DNA of 64,000 nt from Pseudomonas phage Pa_WF01 (OQ848593.1); one strand, 5' to 3'; shown: positions 10,667-38,974, counted from the first letter of the stretch. Notes: generated from the letters alone by a model not told the origin. Program-made: numbers and translations.

Positions 10667-13183
10667 TCAGCCACGAATAGCTGTTTTCAGTAGTTTGACT
10701 GCCGTGGTGACAGTCTTCTTATCGCCGAGTGCACGCCGCACTTCCGAGGTATTCAGAAGAGCTACTATGGGTGCTTCAGAGATCTTCTTCAGCATTTCCA
10801 GCACTTTCTTGTCGCCCGGAATTGCCTTGATCTTCTTGCCCAGTGCCTCCAAGGATTCCTTCTGCTCCTGTGTGAAGAAGCGGGAGTCCATGGAGTAGAC
10901 CGTGGTGAGCAATTCTTCAGCCGCAGGATCTTCAGGCTCCGGCAGTTTGAATACCTTACGGCACTCTTCCACCTGCATCATCTTCCTGATGAGATCAACG
11001 TATTCCGGGTCTTTCGCAGCATCCAACAACAAGGTGTAGCGAAGAGAGCAAGCCTTGCTGAACTCAGGTTTTTCAACCTCTTCCAGGAGCTTTACCAGCA
11101 GGAAGTCACGGGCACTTTTGACGCCCTTCTTCTCCATGTTGGCTTCTTGGGTTTCGGTGTACACAACTGCGCCCACATCGCCGAAATTCTTCAGCAGGTA
11201 GGCCGAGCACACCTTGTCCAAACCACGTACACACTTGCGGGTGTAGTAGTCGCTCTTGGTGGGGAGACGCACGTAGTAGGAGGGATTCTCCACCCGAGCT
11301 ACAGATTCCGTCCTTGCCATCTCCAGGGAGAAGATGCCGCTGCTATGGCAAGCCGAGAGCATCGGATATCCCTTCTTCCTTGGCTTGGACACGACTGGGG
11401 CAGCACCGGTCTTCGAGTCGTACTCGATTACCTCAGCTTCCTTGGTCAGGTCCAGTACTTCCCAGCCCTTCAGAGTACTCAGGGCTTTCCTGGCTTCCTC
11501 CACCTTCTTCATGCTACGCGGAACCACGTAAGCGATGAGGGCGTCGTCTGCACTGTAACCGCCTACCCACTCGTCGAGATCCTCCACACGGCTATGGATG
11601 TCACGACGGCTGTGCGTCAGGACAATACAGCGGCGGAACAGCGGCACATAGGACATCGGATTCTTCGACCAGTACGAAACCAACGGATACCCATTGTGGT
11701 TGTTGTAGTTCCGAACAGAATCCCCGTTGTGCAGGTGACGCCCAGCGCCGTACCAGATCAGCCTAGTGGGGCACAGCCCTTCTTCGTGGATCAGCGGCAA
11801 CAGCTTGGATACCAGGTGCTTCTGCCCCCACTTGCGTACTGCCAGTGCCTGCCAGGAATCCTTGCGGAACTTCGTGAGGTTCTCGAAGGTGGCACTAACG
11901 TAGTGATGGTGGGCAGATGCCATCCCAACCTTCTTCATCAGCCGGATGAGTGAAGGGTACAGGGTGTTTCCTTGGTTTCGCGGCTGCTTTCCTATGAGGG
12001 AAAGCTGTTGCAGCAGGGTCTTGAAGTTCTCCTTTTCATCCCGGCTATTCGAATGGTACAGCTGGCTCAAGCCAACCTCTTCCATGGTAGACATGAGTCC
12101 CTTGGTGGCCAGCCTGGACCCCTTCATGGAACTTACGAGCACGCGGTTAGCCGTTACTTCTTCAGGCCGCATCATACTGCCTGCCCTGGCTTGCACCAGT
12201 TCTTCACAGGACTTCGCCAGGATGTCGCTGCGTTCCTTGTTGATGTTCCGCGTTTCACGGAGGAACTTGTTGAGCAGCTGAAGAAGAGTCTTGCGGGTGT
12301 GGTCTTCCATGGACAGCGCTTCCCGAGACGGTGTGATCGACACCGAGTTCGGTTTGGCCTGGAGCACCAGCACGTTGACGTTGCCCGGCAGAGAGTTCAC
12401 GAACTTGTGCACAGGATCGTACACCTCGGCGATGAACTCATCCCGCTCTACGGGGTAGATGACATCGCCATAGCGGACACAGATGATGTGGCCGTTGTAT
12501 TCGAGCACCTGCTCGGTAGCGATGGACCAGTCCTTGGTTACCTGGGAGAAGGGCAGAGTGGGCAGCTTCACCCCGTTGAAGTTGGCCAGCATTTCGGCGT
12601 TGGCCACGATACGGCGAATCAGCGTACCGAATCGACGTACGTCTTCGTTCTTGATATTGATCCGTACTTCCAGACCGGTCTGGTCGGTAGGGATATCGGT
12701 CACCACCGGGGTGATGGCAGGACGGCCACCGTTCTGGATGGAAGCCTTCTGCATGCGGTAGACGTTGGTCTTTCCTTCGTGGTGAATGGTCACCTGGAAG
12801 TTGTCCACGTAGGCGAAGGGGGACTTGCACCCCAAACCAAAGCCGCCAGTCTGGGAACCGTCGTGCTTCTTGGTGGAGCCGCCGTAGACACCGTAAATGG
12901 TGCCCACGTCGTCGGGATGGATACCAGGTCCGAAGTCACGGATGACGAATTCGTCGTCCTTGAGGGTGATCTCGACTGGGGTCTCTTTCTCGATGCCTAC
13001 CATCTTGTGGGCATCGTAGGCGTTGCAGAGAGTTTCCCGGACGACGGCAAGAATCTTGTCCGTGTACAGGGAACTCGACAGAACTTGGAAGAAGGCCGGG
13101 TCATCACTGATGCCCATGGAAATTGCTTGCTTGCCGCCGATCACAACGTGAGTGGCGTAGTCTTTCTGATGAGTTACCTGCAT
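10667..13183 (-). CDS. rIIA: rIIA-like protein (838 aa) with an N-terminal GHKL/HATPase_c ATPase domain.
   Basis: N-box RETLCNAYDAH, G1 box IRDFGPGI, G2 box GGFGLG; size and phage context match rIIA. SD AGGAG precedes the ATG at 13183. Confidence 0.6.
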   Translation of the reverse strand: MQVTHQKDYATHVVIGGKQAISMGISDDPAFFQVLSSSLYTDKILAVVRETLCNAYDAHKMVGIEKETPVEITLKDDEFVIRDFGPGIHPDDVGTIYGVYGGSTKKHDGSQTGGFGLGCKSPFAYVDNFQVTIHHEGKTNVYRMQKASIQNGGRPAITPVVTDIPTDQTGLEVRINIKNEDVRRFGTLIRRIVANAEMLANFNGVKLPTLPFSQVTKDWSIATEQVLEYNGHIICVRYGDVIYPVERDEFIAEVYDPVHKFVNSLPGNVNVLVLQAKPNSVSITPSREALSMEDHTRKTLLQLLNKFLRETRNINKERSDILAKSCEELVQARAGSMMRPEEVTANRVLVSSMKGSRLATKGLMSTMEEVGLSQLYHSNSRDEKENFKTLLQQLSLIGKQPRNQGNTLYPSLIRLMKKVGMASAHHHYVSATFENLTKFRKDSWQALAVRKWGQKHLVSKLLPLIHEEGLCPTRLIWYGAGRHLHNGDSVRNYNNHNGYPLVSYWSKNPMSYVPLFRRCIVLTHSRRDIHSRVEDLDEWVGGYSADDALIAYVVPRSMKKVEEARKALSTLKGWEVLDLTKEAEVIEYDSKTGAAPVVSKPRKKGYPMLSACHSSGIFSLEMARTESVARVENPSYYVRLPTKSDYYTRKCVRGLDKVCSAYLLKNFGDVGAVVYTETQEANMEKKGVKSARDFLLVKLLEEVEKPEFSKACSLRYTLLLDAAKDPEYVDLIRKMMQVEECRKVFKLPEPEDPAAEELLTTVYSMDSRFFTQEQKESLEALGKKIKAIPGDKKVLEMLKKISEAPIVALLNTSEVRRALGDKKTVTTAVKLLKTAIRG

Positions 13184-13186
13184 GGA

Positions 13187-13531
13187 TTACTCCTTGGACT
13201 TGGCGCGTTTAGCGCGACGTTTCTGATTGGTGAGGTGAGTGACCATCTCCAGATGAGCGGGGTTGCAGCACAACCGTTGTCCGCAGAGATGGTCGATCTG
13301 TTTCTTACCCGGCACGTAGCCGAAGTAGTTGGTGAACATGACGATGTGGACGGCCACTGTCTGGCCGTCCAGGCTCATTCGCCCGTAACCACCGCCCCTG
13401 CCCGTACCCGAATCCGGGCCTTGCCAGAGGTGGCAGGGGCTGGGTTTTCCGTCGAGGATGAAGCCCGTGTCTTCGACTTTGCAGCGGGCTTCGATTCTCT
13501 CCCGGATTTCTTTCCTGCGTCCTTCGAACAC
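13187..13531 (-). CDS. Free-standing HNH homing endonuclease (114 aa, GTG start).
   Basis: Motifs GRGGGYGRMSLDG and HLCGQRLCCNPAHLEMVTHLTNQ (HNH with Cys pairs). SD AAGGAG 7 nt before the GTG at 13531. The N-terminus overlaps the upstream ORF. Confidence 0.75.
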   Translation of the reverse strand: MFEGRRKEIRERIEARCKVEDTGFILDGKPSPCHLWQGPDSGTGRGGGYGRMSLDGQTVAVHIVMFTNYFGYVPGKKQIDHLCGQRLCCNPAHLEMVTHLTNQKRRAKRAKSKE

Positions 13532-13773
13532 GGAGCTACTCCTTTGATGTGGGACATCAGTTTCTTCTTCGGCATCATCCGGTTCTCTGCCCGGAAGATG
13601 TCGTACTCTTTTTCGGACACCTGCTCATACCCTTCGGGCACAGGCAGTTGTCCCATGGTCCAGGTGTGGGTCATGCGAGTCACACGGTTGACGAAGAAAT
13701 ACCGTCCGTTGACAGGCGCATGACCCAACTTTCCTGGAGTCCAATCAGCTTTCAGTTTGGCTTTCTTCGCCAT
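13375..13773 (-). CDS. Hypothetical protein. Its first roughly 80 aa look genuine, but the C-terminal 50 aa are low-complexity and overlap the HNH gene by 157 nt. It may be a gene remodelled by the HNH insertion.
   Basis: SD AAGGAG 5 nt before the ATG at 13773. The overlapping tail is CSKDAGKKSGRESKPAAKSK... Confidence 0.35.
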   Translation of the reverse strand: MAKKAKLKADWTPGKLGHAPVNGRYFFVNRVTRMTHTWTMGQLPVPEGYEQVSEKEYDIFRAENRMMPKKKLMSHIKGVAPCSKDAGKKSGRESKPAAKSKTRASSSTENPAPATSGKARIRVRAGAVVTGE

Positions 13774-13947
13774 GATTACTCCTTATGCAGCACGTACATG
13801 CCTTTGATGTCGGTGCCCAAGATGTAACCCTTGGGCACTGTTGGTTTCCCATAGACAGCCTTGCCGGAAGCGATAGCAGCCTCAGCTTCTTCGATACCTC
13901 CGAAGTGCTTGATCATATGGTTGAAGGAAGCCCAGTAGGACTTCCGG

Positions 13948-14418
13948 TCAGTTAGCGAGCAGGGTTTTCGAGACAACGTAGTGACCCCCGTGTTCGGTGA
14001 TAAGGGAGTCCAGGGTGCTCCAACTCATGGCTTTCACATTGCCCATGGCCAGCACTGTCATCCCCTCGGGTTCATCGTGATCATCCCGGTACATCACGAG
14101 ATGAACACCATGAGTTGCGATCATTTCTGCACAGCGTACGCAAGGTGCCCGAGTGATCCATAGGACAGAATTGTCCAGGGGTACACCAGAGCGGGATGCC
14201 CAAGCCAAGATGTTGTGCTCGGCGTGGATAACCCCGTAGGGAGTGGTTTTGAAGCGGGTCTCTTCCCGAAGGTACTCGCCGTTCTCGCAACAGTTGTCGG
14301 TTCCAGGCATGGTGCCGTTCCACCCAGTGAAGAGGGCACCGGTCGTAGTGACCAGCACCCCTCCAACTTGATGGCGTTCAGCTACACTCTGCTTGGCCGC
14401 ATTCGTCGCTATCGACAT
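13948..14418 (-). CDS. dCMP (deoxycytidylate) deaminase (156 aa).
   Basis: Zinc-binding motifs HAEHNIL and PCVRCAEMI. SD AGGAGA 6 nt before the ATG at 14418; the track ORF extends to 14529 from an alternative start. Confidence 0.8.
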   Translation of the reverse strand: MSIATNAAKQSVAERHQVGGVLVTTTGALFTGWNGTMPGTDNCCENGEYLREETRFKTTPYGVIHAEHNILAWASRSGVPLDNSVLWITRAPCVRCAEMIATHGVHLVMYRDDHDEPEGMTVLAMGNVKAMSWSTLDSLITEHGGHYVVSKTLLAN

Positions 14419-14598
14419 GTACAGTCTCCTGTACTTCATCGACCTAGGGTCCGGGGCTTTCAGCACTGTTGATACCTCTCGCAAAGTCGCAGGCAGCCCA
14501 AAGGCCGCCGCATTCATGGACGAGCACACCGTCCTTACGCACGGCTATTACGCCTTGCGACACGGTGATCTCGTGGTCGTTTACCCAGCAGGTACTTG

Positions 14599-17217
14599 TC
14601 ACGCAGATTTCTCCTTCAGTGCAGCAGCATGCTCACGGCACTGTTCAATGAGACGTTCCTTGGTGATGGGATAGTCCAGGGTGCAGGCTTCACGCCAGCT
14701 GGGCCAGAAAATGTCCAGGTTGGCACCCAGAGGAACCCGCTTGTCATTGATCTTGGGGTCTTCCTGCCACGCCATGCACTTGCAGAGCGTGTTGTTGACC
14801 CACACAGTGACATCAGGATCGTCCGGCCACATCACGTAGATCGCATCGTGGATCAGAGAGATAATCTCTACCTTCAGCTTGTAGGGACTGGCCAGTAGCA
14901 GCTTGCGGAATTCCACAGCAGCACGGTTGGTCAGTAGACCCCAGGATTGGCCGGACACTGCGTTACCCGCACTACGGGATTCAGCAGCGGCCTCCTTGGG
15001 AGTCGCCTTCAAGCCAAGCATGGTGGACCCCAATAGCGGCGTTCTCAGCCGCAGGTTGAAGGCCAGTTCCACGTAGCCCGTCTTGGTTGCTTTGTCGATC
15101 TCACCAGCCACCCACTCATTGCTTACGCGATAGAGCTTGTTGTAGTTGGTTTCGATCTCCTGGGCTTCTTCATCCGAGAAACCTACCTGCCGCACCAGAC
15201 CCATCCAACTGCCCCCATACTGGAGCAGGAAGTGTGGAGTCTTGGCTTTGCTTCGCAGGTCTGGGTAGACCTTCTGGATCGAGTTGATGGAGTCAACCGT
15301 GTCTACGATCCCCTCGCACTTGTCCGGCCAGAACGCAAAGGTACGCATCGAGTGGCCATCGTAGCCATCGGTGTACACCTTGATTTTGTTCGGGTCTTGA
15401 GTGAGCAGGGCGTTGATCCGGTCTTCTAGTGCAGCGAAGTCCGCCCCTCCGAAGAGGAAGCCGGGCGGTGCACAGAAGAGAGACTTCACCAGCTTGCCGT
15501 AGGTCGAGCCAGCCGGAAGGTTTTGCAGGTTGGGATCAGACGAGGACAGCCGTCCAGAGATGGTTCCCCCAAGGTTGAAGGAGCCATGCAGGTACATCAT
15601 TCCGTCCGCCTTCATTCGACCCGCCTTGAAGGCTGGCATGAAAGCAGAGATGACCTTCTCTACGGCACCCAAGTCCATCAGAGCCTGGATGAGATCCTTG
15701 TACGGTTCCGCCTTGATGTGGTTCAGCAGCTTCTTCAGCGTACCCCCACTGGTGGAGGGTTGCTTGGTCGCCGTCACGTCCAGTACAGGAAGGTATAGGA
15801 CTTCATGCAGCAGACGAGCCACTTGTGGACCAGAGTTGGGGTTGAACCGAATGTGCGAAAACTTGCTCAGCGGATGCTGGATAGTCTTCAGCTTGGCATT
15901 GGCCTTTTCCATCTCACTGGTTTGGATCAGTACCTCTACCCTGGCGACTGCGGGATGGCTCATCACAGTGTTGTGGTACCCGTCCCGCAGGCTATTCAGT
16001 TCAGTATTGACCTCTGCGATCTTCTTCGGATCCATGGGCATGCCCACGAGTTCCATCTGAATAATCAGGTCCAAGCTGTCCTTGAACAGGCCGTGGTAGA
16101 GAGCTTCCTGCTGGTCTTGCACCATGATGGGGTAATACTTGTTCTTCACCCATACGGTCGTCACCGCATCCACCGCGTTGTACTTCATGAGATCTTCCAG
16201 CTGAATCAGCCGGATGTCCTTGATCTCGTCCTGAGCCCAGTTACCCGCATGCTCCTGCCCCAGGTCTTTCAGGGAGTAGCTGACATCAGCGGTTGAGTTC
16301 AGTGCGAGGTACGCGATGATCTTGGTGTCGTCCATCCGTGGAGTCATGATCTCCAAGCCACGGTGCATGCCCTCTTTGTCGAGGTCATGCTCCATGAATA
16401 GGGTGTAGATCAGAACCTTCACGTCATGGTTTGCACGGTGGTAGATGATTCGCCCAGGGTACTCGGTGAAGAACCACTTGAGCACTTCCCGCATCTCTGC
16501 GTTCGGCTCGTAGTAACCGTGGTGCTTGTTCTCGTCCTGGATCATCTCCCTGTAGTCACACTGGATCTGCACAGCATCGTGCTCGTTCCAGGCGAAGCCA
16601 ATGGTGGCAATGCCGGAGTCGAACATGCTGAGACTGAAGCCTTCGATGTCACAGGATATCTCCGGCTTGTCCATGAGCCTGGACAGAGCTTCCCTGGCTT
16701 GACTGACATGGCCCCGGTAGATGTACGTGACATTGTGCAGCAGGTCAGATCCGACAGGCCGATACACGCCATTGGCATGGTCAACGATGGCTTTGAAGCC
16801 ACGGCTTAGCTTGTGCATCTGCCCTGGATCGAACAACAGCACCTGATGGTTTACGCCCGGAGTCACCAGGTACCCAGGATCGTAGCCAGCAGGGGGCGAC
16901 AGGTTGCCGAAGTCGGCGTCCGTCTTCCGCTTGGTCCACTCCTTGAAGTACTTGGAGTCAGCCACGTAGGCATACTGGACTCCGAGATCCCGCAGTAGCT
17001 GGTCGCGATCCTTGATGCACTCCTTGATCGCCTTGGCAGATACCTTCTTGCCCTCGTAATCCAGTGAGATCACGATGACATTCTTGCGGGGAACACCAAG
17101 CCCTTCCAGCTGCTTGATGTAGGTGGATTCAGCGGCTGACCGACTCACCGCTGCCTCCTTGATCAGGATAGCCACAGGGTAGCTATCCTGTTCTTCCCAG
17201 GTGATGTACTTCATCAC
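14599..17217 (-). CDS. Family A DNA polymerase with a 3'-5' exonuclease domain (872 aa).
   Basis: Exo I motif CDIEGFSL; Pol motif A GADFAALEDR; motif B RSKAKTPHFLLQYGG; motif C IISLIHDAIY. ATGA coupling to the upstream gene. Confidence 0.9.
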   Translation of the reverse strand: MMKYITWEEQDSYPVAILIKEAAVSRSAAESTYIKQLEGLGVPRKNVIVISLDYEGKKVSAKAIKECIKDRDQLLRDLGVQYAYVADSKYFKEWTKRKTDADFGNLSPPAGYDPGYLVTPGVNHQVLLFDPGQMHKLSRGFKAIVDHANGVYRPVGSDLLHNVTYIYRGHVSQAREALSRLMDKPEISCDIEGFSLSMFDSGIATIGFAWNEHDAVQIQCDYREMIQDENKHHGYYEPNAEMREVLKWFFTEYPGRIIYHRANHDVKVLIYTLFMEHDLDKEGMHRGLEIMTPRMDDTKIIAYLALNSTADVSYSLKDLGQEHAGNWAQDEIKDIRLIQLEDLMKYNAVDAVTTVWVKNKYYPIMVQDQQEALYHGLFKDSLDLIIQMELVGMPMDPKKIAEVNTELNSLRDGYHNTVMSHPAVARVEVLIQTSEMEKANAKLKTIQHPLSKFSHIRFNPNSGPQVARLLHEVLYLPVLDVTATKQPSTSGGTLKKLLNHIKAEPYKDLIQALMDLGAVEKVISAFMPAFKAGRMKADGMMYLHGSFNLGGTISGRLSSSDPNLQNLPAGSTYGKLVKSLFCAPPGFLFGGADFAALEDRINALLTQDPNKIKVYTDGYDGHSMRTFAFWPDKCEGIVDTVDSINSIQKVYPDLRSKAKTPHFLLQYGGSWMGLVRQVGFSDEEAQEIETNYNKLYRVSNEWVAGEIDKATKTGYVELAFNLRLRTPLLGSTMLGLKATPKEAAAESRSAGNAVSGQSWGLLTNRAAVEFRKLLLASPYKLKVEIISLIHDAIYVMWPDDPDVTVWVNNTLCKCMAWQEDPKINDKRVPLGANLDIFWPSWREACTLDYPITKERLIEQCREHAAALKEKSA

Positions 17218-26672: not shown

Positions 26673-27674
26673 TCAAGACAGCGCATACTCGCTTTCACGG
26701 ATCAGTTCAGACAGGTTGTGGATCGACCGGTCGTAGCTGACATGGCTTCCAGTGATCTGGTGAACGATGTCGTCGAGGACGTTGCTGTCGGCCAGTTCGG
26801 CGAAGATGTTGATGTAGTGCTGGCGCATCTCGTTGCAGAAGTTCGGGTGGCACTTGAACTCATCGTGCACGGTGACCAGTTCGAAGGGTTCGTGGACCCG
26901 CATGGTGTCCCACAGGGCACACAGAGCTTCCAGGTGGTCAGTCTCCAGCTGACGCACGTTGACAGCGTTGATGTGGTTGAAGATCACTGCATCGACCATG
27001 TTGGTGCGGTCGTACAGGTCTTCGTAGACAGCCAGCTTGGCGTCCCTGGCGACCTCGGCTTCGCACTTGCCAGAGTGACGGTCCATCAGTTCACCCCAAA
27101 CCAACTGCATTACCTTGGTGATGGCTTCACGATCGTAGTTGCAACGACGGTGCATGGAACGAAGCACGTAGGCGTCGATGGAGTGGATGATGTTGGCAGC
27201 GTTCTTCACAGCACGCTCTACACCGCAGTCCTGCTTGTAGATGTACTCGAAGCTTGCACCATCCATCTCGTCCACTTCCACCCGAGTCTCGAACACGTCT
27301 ACCGACTTGACTATGGAGTGGAAGTTGTCCGGCAGCACCCAGGAGTGCTTCATGGCGTAGGGCTGCCAAGTGTTGATCAGGTCATCCCGCATCTCGTTGG
27401 CGATGGGAGCTACCATCTCCACGCCTTGGTAGAAGGCTTCCAGTTCAGGAGTGTCCTCACCGAACAGGTTCTTCGGCTCAGCCTTCGAGCCATAGAAGTG
27501 AGTCATGGTTGCAGTCTTGATGTCCGACCGCTTGATCTCCCCTACCGACTCACCCAGGTGGGTGGAGGCAGCAGTGGTGACCAGGCTGTAGGCATCCTGA
27601 CGGAAGCCAGTGTTGATGAGGTTGGTGGCTTGGGCACCAGATTCACAGCCACCCAGGGCCGACATTATCTGCAT
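26673..27674 (-). CDS. Exon 2 of the RNA polymerase II large subunit (T7-like single-subunit RNAP, N4 gp16-like). It carries motifs B and C; 333 codons.
   Basis: Motif B IKRSDIKTATMTHFYGS matches T7 RSVTKRSVMTLAYGS. Motif C VTVHDEFKCHP matches T7 LIHDSFGT. N-terminus MQIMSALGGCESGAQATNL matches T7 IQHFSAMLRDEVGGRAVNL. Confidence 0.8.
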   Translation of the reverse strand: MQIMSALGGCESGAQATNLINTGFRQDAYSLVTTAASTHLGESVGEIKRSDIKTATMTHFYGSKAEPKNLFGEDTPELEAFYQGVEMVAPIANEMRDDLINTWQPYAMKHSWVLPDNFHSIVKSVDVFETRVEVDEMDGASFEYIYKQDCGVERAVKNAANIIHSIDAYVLRSMHRRCNYDREAITKVMQLVWGELMDRHSGKCEAEVARDAKLAVYEDLYDRTNMVDAVIFNHINAVNVRQLETDHLEALCALWDTMRVHEPFELVTVHDEFKCHPNFCNEMRQHYINIFAELADSNVLDDIVHQITGSHVSYDRSIHNLSELIRESEYALS

Positions 27675-28674
27675 CGCTTGTTTTCACAGAAGGTCGTTAA
27701 TCTTCTGCCGTGTCAGCAGGACGTGGGAGATTTCCAAATATCCAACCTTTCAAAGGTTTCGTCGGTGCAGGTTTGTGCTGATTGCACTCCCGCATGCGAT
27801 TGGCTATTTGATGTTCCTTAAGTCCCAAAGTAGGTGCTACATCTTTCTTGGTTTGATCGTGGATTTCTACGTAAACCCCTTCTGGGGTCACGTAGTACCA
27901 AGGCTGGAATGCTGTATTTGAGGTACCAGCATGGCCCTTGTCTTTGCACTTAGTTCCACGAATCTTTTCAGCCGTCGCTGCATGAGCAACAATCATCGCT
28001 GGGGTGCGATTACCACTATAGCGACGGCTGAAAGTTTTACCTGCTTCAGTACGATCCACACTGATGCCTTTGTTCCAGCTGACGGAACCATGGCAGTCAT
28101 GCGTTGCAACACGCTGGTTGTACCAGTTGGGTGACGCAACACAGTTGTGTTCTTCGATGTAACTCCGTTCGAAGTCCATCAACTCTTGGCGAGTATTGAA
28201 GGTTCTCAAGATGGTTTTCACAGGCGGGTTGTCTTTTCGGTCCACCGGTAAGCCCCTACCAGATCCGAGATACGTGGTATCTAATTCTGGCGGTAGCTTG
28301 CACGAGCGGGCACCTATGTAGTACATCCCGTCTGCGAAAGTAAGCAAGTAAGCGTAGTGGTTCATGTGACCTCCTAGTTGTTCTGGAGTGCATATGTTAC
28401 CACGCCCTACTGACACTGCTGTGAATTTCTCCACAGGCAAGACTATATCTTCACCCCAGAAGGGTGCTTCCCATTTCCACCCACTTGGGTGTACGGCCTA
28501 AGCCTAGTCGTTGAACCTTCTCCCATACGGAGCTTGGCTGCTGATTGCCCAATCCACACACTTTTCAAACCTTCGCTTTGCCTTTCGGCTCGCAGTGGTA
28601 GCGTGGCTCTAAGGGGTTCCCAGCAATTAAGGAAGTGATCGACATGGATTGCTCCATGAAGGGGCTAGAAATCA
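27675..28674 (-). mobile_element. Group I (IA2-like) self-splicing intron, 1000 nt, with a GIY-YIG homing endonuclease ORF in its 3' region. It interrupts the RNAP II large-subunit gene at catalytic motif A.
   Basis: Minus-strand conserved elements: P AATTGCTGGGAAC (about 28611-28632); Q AATCAGCAGC (28538-28547); R GTTCAACGACTAG (28504-28516); S AAGATATAGTC (28441-28451). Exon 1 ends ...GGU and the internal guide GCCC lies at 28661-28666. An in-frame UGA is the first intron codon, and omega-G precedes the exon 2 AUG. Confidence 0.75.
27697..28365 (-). CDS. GIY-YIG homing endonuclease (222 aa) encoded within the intron.
   Basis: HYAYLLTFADGMYYIGARS (GIY-YIG); RSYIEEHNC. SD AGGAGG 4 nt before the ATG at 28365. 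AT-richer than the flanking exons. Confidence 0.8.
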   Translation of the reverse strand: MNHYAYLLTFADGMYYIGARSCKLPPELDTTYLGSGRGLPVDRKDNPPVKTILRTFNTRQELMDFERSYIEEHNCVASPNWYNQRVATHDCHGSVSWNKGISVDRTEAGKTFSRRYSGNRTPAMIVAHAATAEKIRGTKCKDKGHAGTSNTAFQPWYYVTPEGVYVEIHDQTKKDVAPTLGLKEHQIANRMRECNQHKPAPTKPLKGWIFGNLPRPADTAED

Positions 28675-28914
28675 ACCCGAGCAGCAGGCATCCAGCCCTA
28701 CGAGGTGGCCAACAGGCTCACCACGCTGAGCAGCACGGATGGCCATGACAGCCTTGAGGTACTGCGGTCGAGTCTTCTCGTTGCACTCCAGATTCTCCAG
28801 GTTGTCGAAGTTGTCGTAGCACCATTGGATGCGCTGTTCGAAGAGCCATTTGTCATGGCCCATTTGGTTTGCAGCGTCGATCAGAAGGTATTCGAAAGCG
28901 GTGTAAGGGGTCAT
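28675..28914 (-). CDS. Exon 1 of the RNA polymerase II large subunit (80 codons), ending at motif A.
   Basis: PYTAFEYLLIDA matches T7 PFCFLAFCFEYA. C-terminal VGLDACCSG matches T7 LAFDGSCSG (catalytic Asp of motif A). The following codon is an in-frame TGA inside the intron. Confidence 0.75.
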
Positions 28915-35550: not shown

Positions 35551-35742
35551 TCAGAAGGGTTCGAAGGTGATTACATCGCCATCAGGGTTGAACAGGAGGA
35601 TGCTAGACCACAGACCCTCATCTCCTTTGCACATGGCAGTTGCCTTGATACGAGCATGGTCATCAGAGTCAGCATGGAACTCATGCTCGACGGAGTTAAT
35701 GCCTCTGTTGATGTACATCAGGGTGTAGATGTTCTGGTCCAT
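35551..35742 (-). CDS. Small acidic protein (63 aa).
   Basis: ORF with weak SD. Last gene before the large non-coding region. Confidence 0.4.
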   Translation of the reverse strand: MDQNIYTLMYINRGINSVEHEFHADSDDHARIKATAMCKGDEGLWSSILLFNPDGDVITFEPF

Positions 35743-36147
35743 GGTTGATACCTATAGAGGACTATGAAGTAAGTACAGAATCGAATACCACTCCATCACC
35801 GAAGGTGTAGAGGAACATCAGACACTACCCAAGTAGAGATAGGGATACGGTGTGTATCGTGTAGATGGGAAAGTGATGACAAGGTATAGGGTTGAGAAAG
35901 GTAGAGATGATGAGGATAGACAATGTAGTTGAATGCACTGCACCACCCCACTATCTCCCCTATCCTCATACACACGAGAGACGAGTTACTGTCAGGTGAA
36001 GAGTAATCTCACAGAGAGTATCCCTTCCTTCCTACAACCTACTGTCCCTGAGAGAGATGTGTGCTTTGTGTGTGCTCTTGATCTTATGTGTGCTCTGAAA
36101 AGGTAAGCCCCCACTCCGTGTTAGGGAGTGAGGGACTTGGGGTAGGG
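35743..36147. promoter_or_regulatory. Non-coding region (405 bp) with repeats and a weak minus-strand terminator at about 36100-36140.
   Basis: 10-bp inverted repeat ATGAGGATAG/CTATCCTCAT (about 35908-35970). TGTGTGCT appears three times (36057-36097). Hairpin CACTCC-gtgttag-GGAGTG (36112-36130) lies downstream of the stop at 36148. Confidence 0.5.
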
Positions 36148-36402
36148 TTAAGCCTTGGCCTTGGTACGTTCCTTGCGGACAGACTCGACAGCTTCGGTGA
36201 GACCCTTCTCCTGAAGTTCCTGAGCGTTCTCGATGTTGAGCAGTGCGATGGCTTGTTCGCGTTGCAGACGAGCCTTGTTGTTGAAGTGAGCAGACTCTTC
36301 TTCAGCCCACTCGGTTACGTTCTCGGCAGCCTTGGTCAGGTTAGTGACAGCACGGAACATGGATTCCAGCATAGCGAAGAATTGGTTGAGAGCTTTGAAC
36401 AT
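36148..36402 (-). CDS. Hypothetical small helical protein (84 aa), isolated between two non-coding regions.
   Basis: SD GGAG 7 nt before the ATG at 36402; charged alpha-helical composition. Confidence 0.55.
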   Translation of the reverse strand: MFKALNQFFAMLESMFRAVTNLTKAAENVTEWAEEESAHFNNKARLQREQAIALLNIENAQELQEKGLTEAVESVRKERTKAKA

Positions 36403-36865
36403 GGTAGTACTCCAGAGTAGTGAGATGTTGATGTGAGGACAGGATTAATCCACAGCACAGCCGAAGGCTTCTCTTGTTCTAGAAGTACAGACAGTTGATT
36501 GGGTAGAAGGAGAGTTAAACAAGGTGGGGTAGGTAGCGCGGGAATTCCAAAACTCAAGAGGTACCGGGGGGGATAACCGGATTTGGAGAGCCGCAGACTG
36601 AAGTACTGAATCCGTACTTAGCTAAACGAAAATCCCTCAGATCCGCGATAGCTGAATCCAGACTTCTATGATGAAAATCCCTACAACCCAAATCACTTCC
36701 ATCTCCCCAAACCAATCCCTTTCCCCCTAGCTCCCATAACCCATAGCTGAGGTTAAGTCGCCAAGCACCGAGCGCAGCGAGGTGGGCAGGATGACTGGTC
36801 CGAAGCTATGGGTTATGGATACCTGTGGATATCTATAGCCAAGTTATCCACAGGATATACACACT
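36403..36865. promoter_or_regulatory. Non-coding region (463 bp) dense in inverted and direct repeats. It is a candidate origin, promoter cluster or genome terminus.
   Basis: 15-bp inverted repeat CCATAACCCATAGCT/AGCTATGGGTTATGG (36736-36815) flanks GAGCGCAGCGAGG. 10-bp inverted repeat CCTGTGGATA/TATCCACAGG (36819-36856). Direct repeats GAAAATCCCT twice and CTGAATCC twice. Hairpin AAGTAC-tgaatcc-GTACTT. Confidence 0.5.
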
Positions 36866-37516
36866 CTACTCCTTACCTTGGATGTAGAAGTGGATGTCCT
36901 TCCAGGAATCCTTGAAGGTCTTGAACTTGACTGGTGCTACGAAGGTCAAGCCAGTGGTCAGGTTGGTAGTAACACCGGTGAACAAACCAGTAGCCTCAGC
37001 CCAATAGACCTCCAGTCTGAAGTTCCTTACCTGATCACGTTGGGTCAGTACTCCAAGGTTCTCCTTCAGTAGCAGAGGAGCCTTGACCCAATCCCTTGCA
37101 TCACGGAAGACAGGATCGAAGTCTGCATCCATGAAGGTACTCTCCATTCTGAGTGTCGTACCTCGGATGGTACCTACCCAGTAGAACAAGCCATCCTTCT
37201 TAACGATATCAGCCTGCTTACGAGAACCACGACTGGCAACCCTGCACAGGAAACTCTCCCTGTTCTCTTCAGTAGAGGTAGCCTTAAGCTTGTCCTCCAG
37301 TTCTTTTACCTTGGCTTCCAGTTCAGCTATCTTCTTCTCTGCTGGGTTGTTAGGTACTACATCAAACAGTTCAGCGTACTCAGCCAGCTTGACGTAAACC
37401 AAGCCAGTGTTGTCATCTCCTGCATTGTTGATGTACTCATGCCAGGAGATACCAAGGTCGATCTCTACCAGTTCTTGCCCTGGTAGTTTGATGTTCAGTA
37501 CTGCTTTGTTGTTCAT
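36866..37516 (-). CDS. Hypothetical protein (216 aa). An ssDNA-binding or recombination role is speculative.
   Basis: ATG at 37516 with a weak SD. The track ORF extends upstream through the repeat cluster. Confidence 0.5.
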   Translation of the reverse strand: MNNKAVLNIKLPGQELVEIDLGISWHEYINNAGDDNTGLVYVKLAEYAELFDVVPNNPAEKKIAELEAKVKELEDKLKATSTEENRESFLCRVASRGSRKQADIVKKDGLFYWVGTIRGTTLRMESTFMDADFDPVFRDARDWVKAPLLLKENLGVLTQRDQVRNFRLEVYWAEATGLFTGVTTNLTTGLTFVAPVKFKTFKDSWKDIHFYIQGKE

Positions 37517-37532
37517 TGAGTCTAAGCCTCGC

Positions 37533-37620
37533 GCGCGTTGAGGTGGGGAGTAGGGAAGCCTCGCGCCTGCGGCCCGAGTCAACCCCGAGCGGAGCGAGGG
37601 GTTGACGAGGGTAATTCCTC
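37533..37620. repeat. Hairpin and repeat cluster just upstream of the 36866-37516 gene.
   Basis: Direct repeat AAGCCTCGCGC twice; hairpin GTCAACCCC-GAGCGGAGCGAG-GGGTTGAC; hairpin ACGAGG-gtaatt-CCTCGT. The loop carries a degenerate GAGCGCAGCGAGG-like motif (CGAGCGGAGCGAGG). Confidence 0.6.
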
Positions 37621-37672
37621 GTGGTACCCTTGGTATTACTCACCCACGGGGGATTACCTATATATTATATAG

Positions 37673-37696
37673 GGGGGAGAAGGAGGCTTACGGGCC
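37673..37696. terminator. Hairpin GGAGGC-ttacgg-GCCTCC with T6 on the plus strand and A-rich on the other side. It is probably a bidirectional terminator ending minus-strand transcription after the stop at 37718. An AT-rich near-palindrome CCTATATATTATATAGG lies adjacent at 37651-37667.
   Basis: 6-bp GC-rich stem; TTTTTT at 37691-37696; 22 nt downstream of the minus-strand stop at 37718. Confidence 0.5.
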
Positions 37697-37717
37697 TCCT
37701 TTTTTGTGCCTGGAATA

Positions 37718-38931: not shown

Positions 38932-38974
38932 TTTGTACGTTGTGTTATCCTCGGCACAACCTATAGACAACCGA
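38932..38974 (+). promoter_or_regulatory. Candidate sigma-70-like late promoter with an inverted repeat (possible operator) upstream of the packaging and structural operon.
   Basis: TTGTGT, then 16 nt, then TATAGA; 6-bp inverted repeat CCTCGG/CCGAGG spanning the spacer. Sits in the divergent 66-bp intergenic region. Confidence 0.3.

Follow-up and report, generated by a model that had tools for sequence, protein, structure and literature searches.

A gene-poor, repeat-rich region that very probably joins the two chromosome ends of a Litunavirus phage carries conserved flanking inverted repeats

In T7, an inverted repeat lies 170–210 bp (~190 bp) leftward of the right terminal repeat, and the promoter phiOR, at a distance of 549 bp on that side, reads into the junction. 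Chung, Nardone and Hinkle reportedly found in 1990 that this junction hairpin acts in repeat duplication. Among the N4-like phages of Pseudomonas, the direct terminal repeat (DTR) of LIT1 (nt 1–655) was bounded experimentally by run-off sequencing on genomic DNA, and its repeat_region annotation records that 'direct sequencing on genomic DNA led to a full stop at the repeat ends'. For the related phage VL1, PhageTerm gave a DTR of ~659 bp and packaging of the T7 short-DTR type. The DTR and the early promoter Pe1 have been described in LIT1, PEV2 and LUZ7 (Ceyssens et al. 2010, PMC3715699; Putzeys et al. 2022, PMC9163698). Of the early phage transcripts of LUZ7, 90% come from gp01 and Drc together, and comparable levels are reported for LIT1.

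We analysed a window of 64,000 nt from Pseudomonas phage Pa_WF01 (OQ848593.1), with particular attention to positions 35,743–37,717. The window matched 79 phage records, nearly all of them Litunavirus, and the best match was PAP02 (89%); the phage belongs to Litunavirus, the Pseudomonas N4-like phages. It is a distinct species-level lineage, 89% identical to its closest record and, over the repeat, 88% identical to LIT1. The host of this type of phage, an N4-like podovirus, is Pseudomonas aeruginosa, against which Litunaviruses are in wide use as therapeutic candidates. About 54% of the 1,975 bases of the region are noncoding. An earlier reading made from the sequence only had noticed just two small genes in about 2 kb, and these proved to be homologues of gp01 (84 aa) and gp90 (216 aa), both on the minus strand; all the repeats that it listed were also recovered in place. 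For gp01, gp02, gp89 and gp90, PHROGs returned only families of unknown function and Pfam returned no family. The features of the DTR and of the adjoining left-end DNA are as follows.

35551..35742, minus: gp02 homologue, 63 aa, first gene past the DTR (phrog_7624, E 3.6e-37; aligned with LIT1 gp02)
35797..35807, minus: candidate second early hairpin promoter, CACC-TTC-GGTG, upstream of gp02 (promoter pattern, LUZ7 PE3)
35910..35969 (arms at 35910 and 35960), unstranded: ATGAGGATAG/CTATCCTCAT inverted repeat across the DTR boundary
35939..36601, minus: single, apparently collapsed DTR copy, 663 bp (alignment to both LIT1 ends)
36058..36094, minus: AGCACACA in three copies (plus-strand sequence TGTGTGCT) at spacings of 11 and 18 nt, immediately beyond the gp01 terminator
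36108..36134, minus: gp01 terminator hairpin, CCCTCACTCC-CTAACAC-GGAGTGGGGG followed by CTTACCTTTT (terminator scan)
36148..36402, minus: gp01 homologue, 84 aa, ORFan, within the DTR (phrog_6483, E 1.7e-48)
36459..36469, minus: early virion RNA polymerase (vRNAP) hairpin promoter Pe1, AGCC-TTC-GGCT (LIT1 Pe1 match)
36519..36533, minus: CCTACCCCACCTTGT, preceded by a C7 run (36566–36572), within the first 90 nt of the left end (N4 comparison)

The minus strand is colinear with LIT1, passing from right-end unique DNA (71.5–72.5 kb) through the DTR to left-end unique DNA (nt 1–1100), so that unique DNA of the right end lies on one side of the repeat and unique DNA of the left end on the other. 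LIT1 nt 1, the physical left end, falls at 36601, and LIT1 nt 655, the final right-end base, at 35939. Only one DTR copy occurs within the window, with an identity to LIT1 of 88% including gaps, and its length of 663 bp falls among those of relatives (632–665 bp). The left boundary, CAGTACT followed by TCAGTCTGCGG, agrees with that of LIT1, LUZ7 shares the boundary sequence GCAGTACTTCAGT, and many independent phage records end ~660 bp beyond the same point. Because the stretch is colinear with LIT1, whose ends are experimentally determined, 35939–36601 can be read as one DTR copy merged by the assembler, with the ends of this phage placed by homology. The linear virion DNA would carry these 663 bp (36601 to 35939, minus strand) at both ends; the assembler would have retained one copy, which is bordered in the assembly by right-end unique DNA beyond 36601 and by left-end unique DNA below 35939.

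We consider it highly probable that the region is the junction of both Litunavirus chromosome ends, together with the scheme of early transcription and flanking signals proposed below. The sequence-only reading had suggested that the assembly is circularly permuted and that the physical ends, with their terminal repeats and the early hairpin promoters, lie here, and the LIT1 DTR mapping, the 29/30 match to Pe1 and the VL1 DTR all agree with it. The repeats that it had singled out are themselves neither the DTR nor the early promoters; most lie outside the DTR, in right-end unique DNA around the ORFan gp90, and the true promoter hairpins (AGCC-TTC-GGCT and CACC-TTC-GGTG) were missing from its list. 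Many deposited Litunavirus genomes are circularly permuted with the repeat collapsed, and the ends 36601/35939 would allow this genome to be oriented and annotated correctly.

Pe1 lies inside the DTR and matches the published LIT1 Pe1 at 29 of 30 positions (Ceyssens 2010 Table S2, PMC3715699). Its hairpin is invariant in 14 genomes and its predicted start is the G at 36451/36450, 13–14 nt from the loop centre; the LUZ7 counterpart, PE1 (GGCC-TTC-GGCC, TSS 99), is the strongest early TSS. Pe1, Pe2 and Pe3, published for LIT1, were all located in the window, where the pattern common to the three occurs at exactly four sites, all on the early strand (simulated mean 0.29). Hairpins with at least 4 contiguous base pairs closing a 3-nt T-N-C loop on the early strand were found at 36469..36459 and at 35807..35797, built in the same way as N4 P1–3 and LUZ7 PE1 and PE3. 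The second, upstream of gp02, has GTGG at +11 to +14 and a predicted start at 35789/35788. Its hairpin and GTGG are unchanged in all 12 genomes covering the site, with the intervening bases varying at one position, and its positional counterpart in LUZ7, PE3 (CTGC-TAC-GCAG, TSS 810), was confirmed by primer extension. Both sites carry GG at +13/+14, the equivalent LUZ7 starts being TSS 99 and TSS 810. A second hairpin promoter before gene 2 is probable from these comparisons and would be an addition to the annotation; the published LIT1 promoter list names genes 1, 12 and 13 and holds no gene-2 hairpin promoter. The comparison also suggests that the LIT1 hairpin published as 'terminator T2' is of the same kind as two mapped LUZ7 early promoters.

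The gp01 homologue has 87% invariant columns. Its terminator, a GC-rich hairpin with a T-run behind it on the transcribed strand, has the form expected of an intrinsic terminator, and the stem occurs in compensatory variants (CTCACTCC/GGAGTGGG versus CTCTACTCC/GGAGTAGAG, alignment A2). LUZ7 T1 (TTS 465), which is 99% efficient, is its counterpart in sequence and position. Once the left end is injected, the virion RNA polymerase would initiate at Pe1 inside the DTR, giving a highly abundant gp01 message ended by the strong hairpin terminator, and the second hairpin promoter, just beyond the DTR, would drive gp02 and the downstream genes.

Just past the terminator, TGTGTGCT starts at 36058, 36069 and 36087. 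The AGCACACA repeats are present in Litunavirus genomes with partly variable copy number and spacing, and LUZ7 has three copies at the equivalent place (nt 471–510). They had been described as iterons, a term that does not hold in its strict sense: iteron-type origins have at least three direct repeats of ~17–22 bp with helical spacing and an adjoining initiator gene, whereas AGCACACA is only 8 bp long, the copies are spaced 11 and 18 nt apart, no Rep-like gene is adjacent, and Tandem Repeats Finder detected no tandem array. The features of the right-end unique DNA are listed below.

36602..36733, minus: variable spacer between the inverted repeats and the DTR, G-rich on the phage Watson strand
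36628 and 36673: GAAAATCCCT copies
36734..36818, unstranded: large inverted repeat, 15 bp perfect, 26 nt at 81% (conserved pairing)
36822..36854, unstranded: inverted repeat CCTGTGGATA(TCT)/(AGT)TATCCACAGG, directly 3' of the gp90 stop
36866..37516, minus: gp90 homologue, 216 aa, an ORFan and the final gene ahead of the right DTR (phrog_8657, E 7.9e-121)
37524 and 37556: AAGCCTCGCGC direct repeat
37578..37606, minus: hairpin D, GTCAACCCC-[loop with CTCGCTCCGCTC]-GGGGTTGAC, ~76 nt upstream of the gp90 ATG
37657..37673, minus: AT-rich palindrome CCTATATAATATATAGG (CCTATATATTATATAGG at 37657), containing TATAAT
37682..37705, plus: hairpin GGAGGC-TTACGG-GCCTCC followed by T6, 13 nt past the gp89 stop

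The large inverted repeat has its arms at 36734 (CCATAACCCATAGCT) and 36804 (AGCTATGGGTTATGG), around GAGCGCAGCGAGG at 36770. Its centre, CACC-CTCGCTGCGCTC-GGTG, contains one copy of the CTCGCT-N-CGCTCG motif (site C, 36770–36781), and the DNA fold of the repeat has a free energy of −30.5 kcal/mol (z = −5.65). The 15-bp pair is the longest perfect inverted repeat (gap up to 120) in the 64-kb window, and in 60 Markov-simulated sequences the longest never exceeded 14 bp. The pair exists in three variant forms, which differ by the replacement of an A-T with a C-G pair and by two distinct 2-nt deletions matched in both arms; complementarity is perfect in each, and DL64 has a perfect 24-bp version of the large repeat. 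The second inverted repeat, with arms at 36822 (CCTGTGGATA) and 36845 (TATCCACAGG), begins 12 nt past the gp90 stop; its arms are invariant in 15 genomes and its loop is variable, and one arm contains the sole perfect TTATCCACA of the window. Inverted repeats of 10 bp are common by chance, both in the window and in simulations. The region as a whole has four perfect inverted repeats of at least 9 bp (mean 1.3, sd 1.2 per 2-kb window, maximum 6 elsewhere) and is enriched in them, though it is not the extreme of the window.

Between these repeats and the DTR, the spacer has only 25% invariant columns. Its 46-nt unit at 36606–36651 is absent from LIT1 and common to PAP02 and 4phiC20-2, and FBPa1 and PaVOB have a different insert at the same spot. 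The two GAAAATCCCT copies sit in two 46-nt units that are only 67% alike.

On the other side of gp90, hairpin D has arms GTCAACCCC at 37578 and GGGGTTGAC at 37598, an 11-nt loop GAGCGGAGCGA and the apex GC-TCC-GC. It is identical in 13 of 14 aligned genomes, the loop in Ps1JH having an extra A and a C-to-A change, and has one bulged A in the metagenomic relative L061. The AT-rich palindrome is likewise identical in 13 of 14 genomes (one change in DL64) and extended in L061. The sigma-70 promoter scan returned 0 sites, the TATAAT at 37664–37669 being without a −35 element. What had been called a bidirectional hairpin with T6 is a hairpin with a T6 tail solely in the plus-strand direction; read on the minus strand, A6 precedes it and the tail, TTCTCC, is no T-run. 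A change on both sides (GGGGGC/GCCCCC) preserves its stem in L061, and LIT1 differs in the loop.

Conservation among relatives, which the sequence-only reading had proposed as a check on its repeats, holds for the elements flanking gp90 and fails for ATGAGGATAG and AAGCCTCGCGC. The ATGAGGATAG/CTATCCTCAT repeat probably arose by chance, its outer arm being unconserved (CAATGTTCAT in LIT1), and the AAGCCTCGCGC pair is not kept among relatives; neither is accepted as a functional repeat. Counts of CTATAGGT and of TATAGGT upstream of gp02, gp86 and gp90 were not above chance, and TATCCAC (11 versus 5.4 expected) is suggestive at most.

The noncoding blocks around gp90 have 82–86% invariant columns, versus 48–53% in gp89 and gp90 (48% in gp90 itself). 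Their compensatory evolution indicates that the three noncoding blocks are functional. The flanking hairpin-forming repeats are conserved and previously undescribed, and those beside gp90 may serve in concatemer processing, transcription control or replication. The two conserved inverted repeats between gp90 and the right DTR copy would lie 130–260 bp from the cut site and are most likely cis-acting DNA signals in the processing of head-to-tail concatemers and the duplication of the repeat. The large one is centred 175 bp inward of the right DTR boundary, or ~130 bp where a genome has no insert, a position within the ~200 bp of a T7-type junction hairpin. No comparable inverted repeat lies beside the right repeat of LUZ7 or N4, so the element would be genus-specific and no general N4-like packaging requirement, and a universal N4-like packaging hairpin is ruled out. 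A dimeric protein site, or an RNA hairpin within the 3' UTR of gp90, would also be expected to change symmetrically.

The motif shared between elements, which had been noticed in two places, proved to have two further copies: CTCGCT-N-CGCTCG occurs exactly at sites A (16–27), B (133–144), C and D (in hairpin D). With up to one mismatch, GAGCGNAGCGAG, of which these are the 4 exact copies in the window, has 5 matches versus 1.35 expected. When IMG/VR was scanned for the motif with a GTCAWCC flank, multi-copy matches were found only in Litunavirus-like contigs; the other ~50 single matches approximate the number estimated for chance. The common element could be what a phage RNA polymerase or another DNA-binding factor recognizes. 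Since the motif also occurs far from the ends, between gp56 and gp57, a transcription or replication factor fits it better than a packaging signal. A possible, though not likely, reading is that the gp90 hairpin set and the sister module at gp56/gp57 form an undescribed, Litunavirus-specific class of cis-element built on this motif; the gp90 set comprises the motif-bearing large inverted repeat, hairpin D and the TGTGGATAA/TATCCACA pair. If true, these might be the middle-class hairpin promoters of these phages, or sites coupling transcription to replication and concatemer processing at the ends.

It is possible, though unlikely, that sites A–D are hairpin promoters for the virion enzyme or for RNAPII with Drc, D driving gp90, C reading into the concatemer junction like T7 phiOR and the large repeats aiding strand extrusion. 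The apex GC-TNC-GC is the core of all three N4 early promoters (GC-T(T/C)C-GC), and the TCC apex of site D recalls the LUZ7 middle promoters and PE7/PE8, in which a stem closes a TCC loop. As in Pe1–3, GG stands at +13/+14 relative to the loop centre of sites A, B and C. All four copies are intergenic, each oriented toward the next gene; no LIT1 middle promoters had been identified as of the 2022 LUZ7 study (PMC9163698). However, mapped promoters have at least 4 contiguous pairs as their defining feature, whereas the motif sites have only 2 bp by the loop and then a 2x2 mismatch. At C and D only GC/GC pairs by the loop before a TC/TC mismatch, so these sites were not classed as N4-type virion-RNAP promoters. 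The central loop base is also variable (G, A or C) where N4 requires a template purine, site B faces a late tail gene transcribed by the host polymerase, and the copies at A and B are located in the arms of a 26-bp repeat and not in a loop. LUZ7 has no mapped TSS near the right end, and the Drc paper names no sequence motif.

Rather unlikely is an action at the RNA level, in which the two hairpins after gp90 would be terminator, insulator or stability elements ending the right-end operon ahead of the DTR and those before gp90 a structured gp90 5' leader. A hairpin with a 10-bp stem 12 nt past the stop, and the compensatory change by which both hairpins are conserved, fit this, and in L061 an A-to-G change leaves ACGAGG/CCTCGT with G-T in place of an A-T pair, which RNA tolerates. 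In LUZ7, mid-infection Watson-strand transcripts span the whole genome and reach the right end as well, which makes transcription of the region probable, and many LUZ7 termination sites have no U-tract. Against it, no U-tract or T-run follows the inverted repeats 3' of gp90, and a 55-nt loop holding a motif common to promoter-proximal regions is unusual for a terminator. Rfam gave no family match in the region at the gathering score or at E <= 1, the best E-values (0.39–0.89) lying far below family cut-offs. Variation is too small for a covariation test separating RNA from DNA.

An 'origin or regulatory hub', the alternative offered by the sequence-only reading, is possible for the flanking elements. 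For its origin part no test gave support, those of DnaA boxes and AGCACACA included: in place of an oriC-like cluster, the perfect and a single-mismatch DnaA box form one inverted repeat, and a third box with a single mismatch (36446–36454) is ~370 bp off, inside the DTR. An origin would draw on an AT-rich unwinding element, the inverted repeats, the DnaA-box pair formed by the only perfect TTATCCACA in 64 kb and its one-mismatch partner in the 10-bp repeat, iteron-like repeats, and a sister module upstream of the replication genes (gp57 onward) that has the 12-nt motif, an inverted TATCCAC pair and a 26-bp repeat with an AT-rich centre. AT-rich palindromes occur both at 37657 and in that gp56/gp57 region, where LUZ7 has a similar one. 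Yet such an origin is very improbable, because DnaA-box-like sites are not enriched window-wide (11 versus 10.7 expected), the second box is merely the complement of the first, AGCACACA is short for an iteron and has no adjacent initiator gene, the cumulative GC-skew minimum is at ~29–33 kb and not at the region, and N4 replication is not known to depend on host DnaA.

Overall, the region holds mainly known biology and a modest new lead on cis-elements, and the general picture of N4-like biology is left unchanged. The three noncoding blocks, better conserved than the surrounding genes, are candidate sites for middle promoters, or for packaging or replication signals, of the genus.

Compared with T7, the region has the same succession of a short DTR, a small gene (19.5 in T7) and then an inverted repeat 130–220 bp inward of the right repeat. 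In T7 this inverted repeat is imperfect (79%) and its loop has 3 nt, whereas that found here is perfect over 15 bp with a structured 55-nt loop; there is no sequence similarity between T7 and the window junction, and LUZ7 and N4 are also without such a repeat. Hairpin D resembles LUZ7 PM1–PM4 (GC-rich stem, TCC loop) in its GC-rich 9-bp stem, its TCC apex and its place upstream of a Watson-strand gene, but its loop is 11 nt, its apical stem is only 2 bp, and it is a putative promoter. As with P1–P3 of coliphage N4, the early promoters are hairpins upstream of the first genes, with a 3-nt coding-strand loop T(T/C)C and a start at a fixed distance downstream of the loop. The stem is 4 bp here versus 5–7 bp in N4, the predicted start is at +13/14 versus +11, and the closing pairs are CC/GG versus GC/GC. 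The 15-mer CCTACCCCACCTTGT near the left end, invariant in alignment A2, recurs with its C-run in the left end of N4. The DTR is 663 bp long, versus 655 bp in LIT1 and 660 bp in LUZ7, and the window differs from LIT1 by the extra 46-nt insert beside the DTR boundary. LIT1 and LUZ7 share with this phage the same order of left end, C-run, Pe1 hairpin, gp01, terminator, three AGCACACA copies and repeat end.

For the region at 35743-37717, 79 phage records give matches; almost all belong to Pseudomonas aeruginosa phages of the genus Litunavirus (Schitoviridae, N4-like), and PAP02 is the top match (89%). In LIT1, the type member, a repeat_region is annotated at nt 1-655, with bounds established by run-off sequencing on genomic DNA (Ceyssens 2010, PMC3715699). 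The minus strand of the window runs in unbroken alignment with the LIT1 right end and on into LIT1 nt 1-1100, window position 36601 corresponding to LIT1 nt 1 and 35939 to nt 655, and the terminal repeat is present in a single copy. Judged by this unbroken alignment and the single copy, the assembly of the window is permuted and has merged the two copies of a 663-bp direct terminal repeat (DTR) into one. Many deposited genomes stop approximately 660 bp past the same end point, providing independent support, and Litunavirus VL1 was assigned a DTR of ~659 bp and T7-type packaging by PhageTerm (PMC9729221). The boundary sequence GCAGTACTTCAGT is common to the window and LUZ7, a phage of another genus. 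The colinear LIT1 ends, the one repeat copy and the VL1 DTR thus bear out the sequence-only reading, which had proposed genome ends with terminal repeats and a circularly permuted assembly. Taken jointly, the region is very probably a genome-end junction carrying the terminal repeat, the early promoter Pe1, gp01 with its terminator, and one further early promoter. The word CAGTRCWT occurs in nearly the same form at both DTR boundaries (36596-36612 and 35935-35947; left TTCAGTACT|TCAGT, right GGTGCA|GTGCAT), and LUZ7 is similar; it is a candidate terminase cut-site motif, too short for statistics.

The region had been described as holding two small genes. These are the only two there, both on the minus strand, and are given here with the candidate promoter (genes numbered after LIT1):

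36148-36402, minus strand: gp01 open reading frame, 84 aa
36866-37516, minus strand: gp90 open reading frame, 216 aa, an ORFan
35807..35797, minus strand: gp02 promoter candidate CACC-TTC-GGTG, 55 nt upstream of gp02 and just outside the DTR

In phage orientation, the DTR comprises the left terminus, the Pe1 hairpin, gp01, a terminator hairpin, three copies of AGCACACA and the right boundary; LUZ7 has AGCACACA repeats at the same place. The hairpin AGCC-TTC-GGCT agrees with Pe1, as published for LIT1, in 29 of 30 bases, in keeping with the earlier proposal of hairpin early promoters at the ends. In LUZ7 the equivalent hairpin is PE1 (GGCC-TTC-GGCC), whose start at nt 99 is the strongest of the early TSSs. 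The gp01 terminator hairpin, which shows compensatory stem variants across relatives, corresponds to LUZ7 T1, 99% efficient (for both, bioRxiv 10.1101/2022.03.18.484859, Tables S2 and S3). In LUZ7, gp01 and Drc together account for 90% of the early phage transcripts, and comparable levels have been reported for LIT1. The left terminus, read on the minus strand, carries a C7 run (36566-36572) and CCTACCCCACCTTGT (36519-36533). Coliphage N4 likewise has the identical 15-mer and a C-run in the first 80 nt of its left end (nt 30-78). The 15-mer with a C7-C9 run in the first 90 nt is thus common to N4 and the Litunaviruses despite their different subfamilies and hosts, and the chance of an identical 15-mer in two 200-nt stretches is roughly estimated at 4e-5. 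This element may be a conserved signal that acts in ejection or packaging, or upstream of a promoter.

A pattern built from the features that Pe1, Pe2 and Pe3, the promoters published for LIT1, have in common (a T(T/A)C loop on a stem of 4 bp or more, and TGG at positions +12 to +14 counted from the centre of the loop) matched exactly four times when both strands of the window were scanned, against 0.29 expected from simulation. All four matches lie on the early strand in early intergenic DNA, three being homologues of Pe1, Pe2 and Pe3. The fourth, the hairpin at 35807..35797, is a probable early promoter; its positional counterpart in LUZ7, CTGC-TAC-GCAG, is PE3, with a TSS at nt 810 mapped by primer extension (bioRxiv 10.1101/2022.03.18.484859). 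The 2010 LIT1 promoter list lacks a site upstream of gp02. N4 P1-P3 share the general build of these hairpins, with the core GC-T(T/C)C-GC.

Elsewhere on the minus strand, AGCGTAC-TCC-GTACGCT (26423-26407 and 23650-23634) and GCGTCT-TCC-AGACGC (26663-26649) form hairpins, the first of which was published as terminator T2 in LIT1. Analogous CGTTC-TCC-GAACG hairpins in LUZ7 are the mapped early promoters PE7 and PE8, and in N4 P2 and P3 a TCC loop is likewise followed by TTTTG; by this likeness the three are probably promoters, and possibly also terminators. The same strand carries a full-length group I intron (28419-28684; Rfam RF00028, 82.5 bits, E 1.8e-19), followed by a 247-aa ORF (27697-28440) with no Pfam family. 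Compared with LIT1, intron and ORF together add ~960 bp, apparently inside the RNAPII large-subunit gene or at its 5' part, and the ORF downstream (26673-27674) has an RNA_pol domain.

The repeats listed in the sequence-only reading were all recovered at their reported positions, and none is the terminal repeat or an early promoter; its 'iterons' form no tandem array in the region. No other perfect inverted repeat with a gap of up to 120 in the 64-kb window reaches the length of the 15-bp one, and 60 simulated sequences contained only shorter ones. Perfect inverted repeats of at least 9 bp number four in the region (mean 1.3 per 2 kb), which is below the window maximum. Their local density peaks at ~12150-14950 (six in 2 kb), around a small-gene/intergenic stretch at 13183-14599.

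Apart from the ATGAGGATAG/CTATCCTCAT, AAGCCTCGCGC and GAAAATCCCT repeats, the listed elements outside the DTR lie in unique right-end DNA on both sides of gp90 and are clearly constrained in a 14-genome alignment: 82% of columns are invariant in the intergenic blocks, compared with 48% in gp90 and 53% in gp89. The expected conservation in relatives holds for these flanking elements and fails for two others, both probably not functional: ATGAGGATAG/CTATCCTCAT, which straddles the DTR boundary, and the exact AAGCCTCGCGC pair, which is lineage-specific. The arms of the large inverted repeat (36734..36818) occur as CCATAACCCATAGCT / AGCTATGGGTTATGG, as CCCTAACCCAT--CT / AG--ATGGGTTAGGG and, in a metagenomic relative, as CCCTAACCC--AGCT / AGCT--GGGTTAGGG. 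Complementarity is perfect in all three forms, which are set apart by a single A-T to C-G exchange and by two distinct 2-nt deletions, each matched in the other arm; in DL64 the repeat is lengthened to 24 perfect base pairs. RNAalifold predicted 42 pairs over eight distinct versions; three of these pairs have both partners changed, and the outer stem has no broken pair. Complementarity or symmetry is therefore under selection. In the 10-bp repeat (36822..36854) the arms are invariant and the loop varies, and a two-sided change preserves the stem of the hairpin at 37682-37705. The third variant of the large repeat comes from two more divergent Litunavirus-like metagenomic contigs of one sample (IMGVR_UViG_3300007790_000319 and IMGVR_UViG_3300007790_000064), which carry the right end and the tail/replication intergenic region and would be useful for further covariation analysis. 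The GAAAATCCCT pair falls within two 46-nt units, 67% alike, one of which is an insert also found in PAP02 and 4phiC20-2. FBPa1 and PaVOB have a different insert at the same spot, so the DNA beside the cut site is a hot spot for small duplications. On the minus strand, the start codons of gp02, gp90 and gp86 are each closely preceded by the word (C)TATAGGT (35750-35757, 37656-37662 and 38959-38966, respectively), which recalls the TATAGG core of T7-type promoters, RNAPII being T7-like; its count (4, with 1.9 expected) is not above chance.

Exact copies of the 12-nt motif GAGCGNAGCGAG number four in the window, and a pair of them, at 16-27 and 133-144, lies outside the region. Read as CTCGCT-N-CGCTCG, with a variable central base, all four copies are intergenic and aimed at the next gene: site A (16-27) towards gp57, B (133-144) towards gp56 and D (hairpin 37578-37606) towards gp90, with C (36770-36781) pointing to the terminal repeat. 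In LIT1 the motif occupies these same four positions, LUZ7 retains a degenerate version between its tail and replication genes, in the equivalent intergenic region, and in IMG/VR more than one copy was found only in Litunavirus-like contigs. The divergent gp56/replication intergenic region (gp56 tail-fibre ATG at 229) has three repeat features: a 26-bp perfect inverted repeat (9-34 / 126-151) with GAGCGCAGCGAG in each arm, a 13-bp one (95-107 / 167-179) with TATCCAC cores, and an AT-rich palindromic centre, GAAATTGAATATTCAATT. Similar palindromes occur there in LIT1 and LUZ7. This intergenic DNA could be a sister module of the region at 35743-37717, an origin or a bidirectional control region.

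We favour the reading that the conserved hairpins flanking gp90 would act in cis, as DNA signals at the concatemer junction. The centre of the large repeat lies 175 bp inside the right DTR, or ~130 bp in genomes without the insert. In T7, where DNA of the same kind is packaged, an inverted repeat sits 170-210 bp inside the right repeat, and the phage promoter phiOR reads towards the junction; Chung, Nardone and Hinkle are said to have described in 1990 a role for the T7 hairpin in duplicating the terminal repeat. Counting against a concatemer-junction role, LUZ7 and N4 have no comparable inverted repeat, and the motif also occurs far from the genome ends. That the motif sites are phage-polymerase promoters seems unlikely: the apex, GC-TNC-GC, agrees with the core of the N4 promoters, and the loop at site D is TCC, as is typical for middle promoters of LUZ7, but the motif loop is closed by just two base pairs, without the defining stem of mapped hairpin promoters, and site B faces a late gene, so we did not class them as promoters. 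As a rival at the RNA level, the hairpins would be terminators or stabilisers of the gp90 message. A replication origin has the least support: the window's only perfect TTATCCACA is one arm of the 10-bp repeat, but DnaA-like boxes show no enrichment, a tandem iteron array and an adjoining initiator gene are both absent, and the GC-skew minimum is located away from the region.

At the time of the 2022 LUZ7 study, LIT1 had no identified middle promoters. The gp90 hairpin set with its compensatory evolution, the four-copy motif and the Litunavirus gp02 promoter appear undescribed in the literature searched, and to specialists working on N4-like phages they offer leads that are modest but testable. 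In its main finding, the region shows biology that is already known, here in a new species-level member of a genus that has been studied well.
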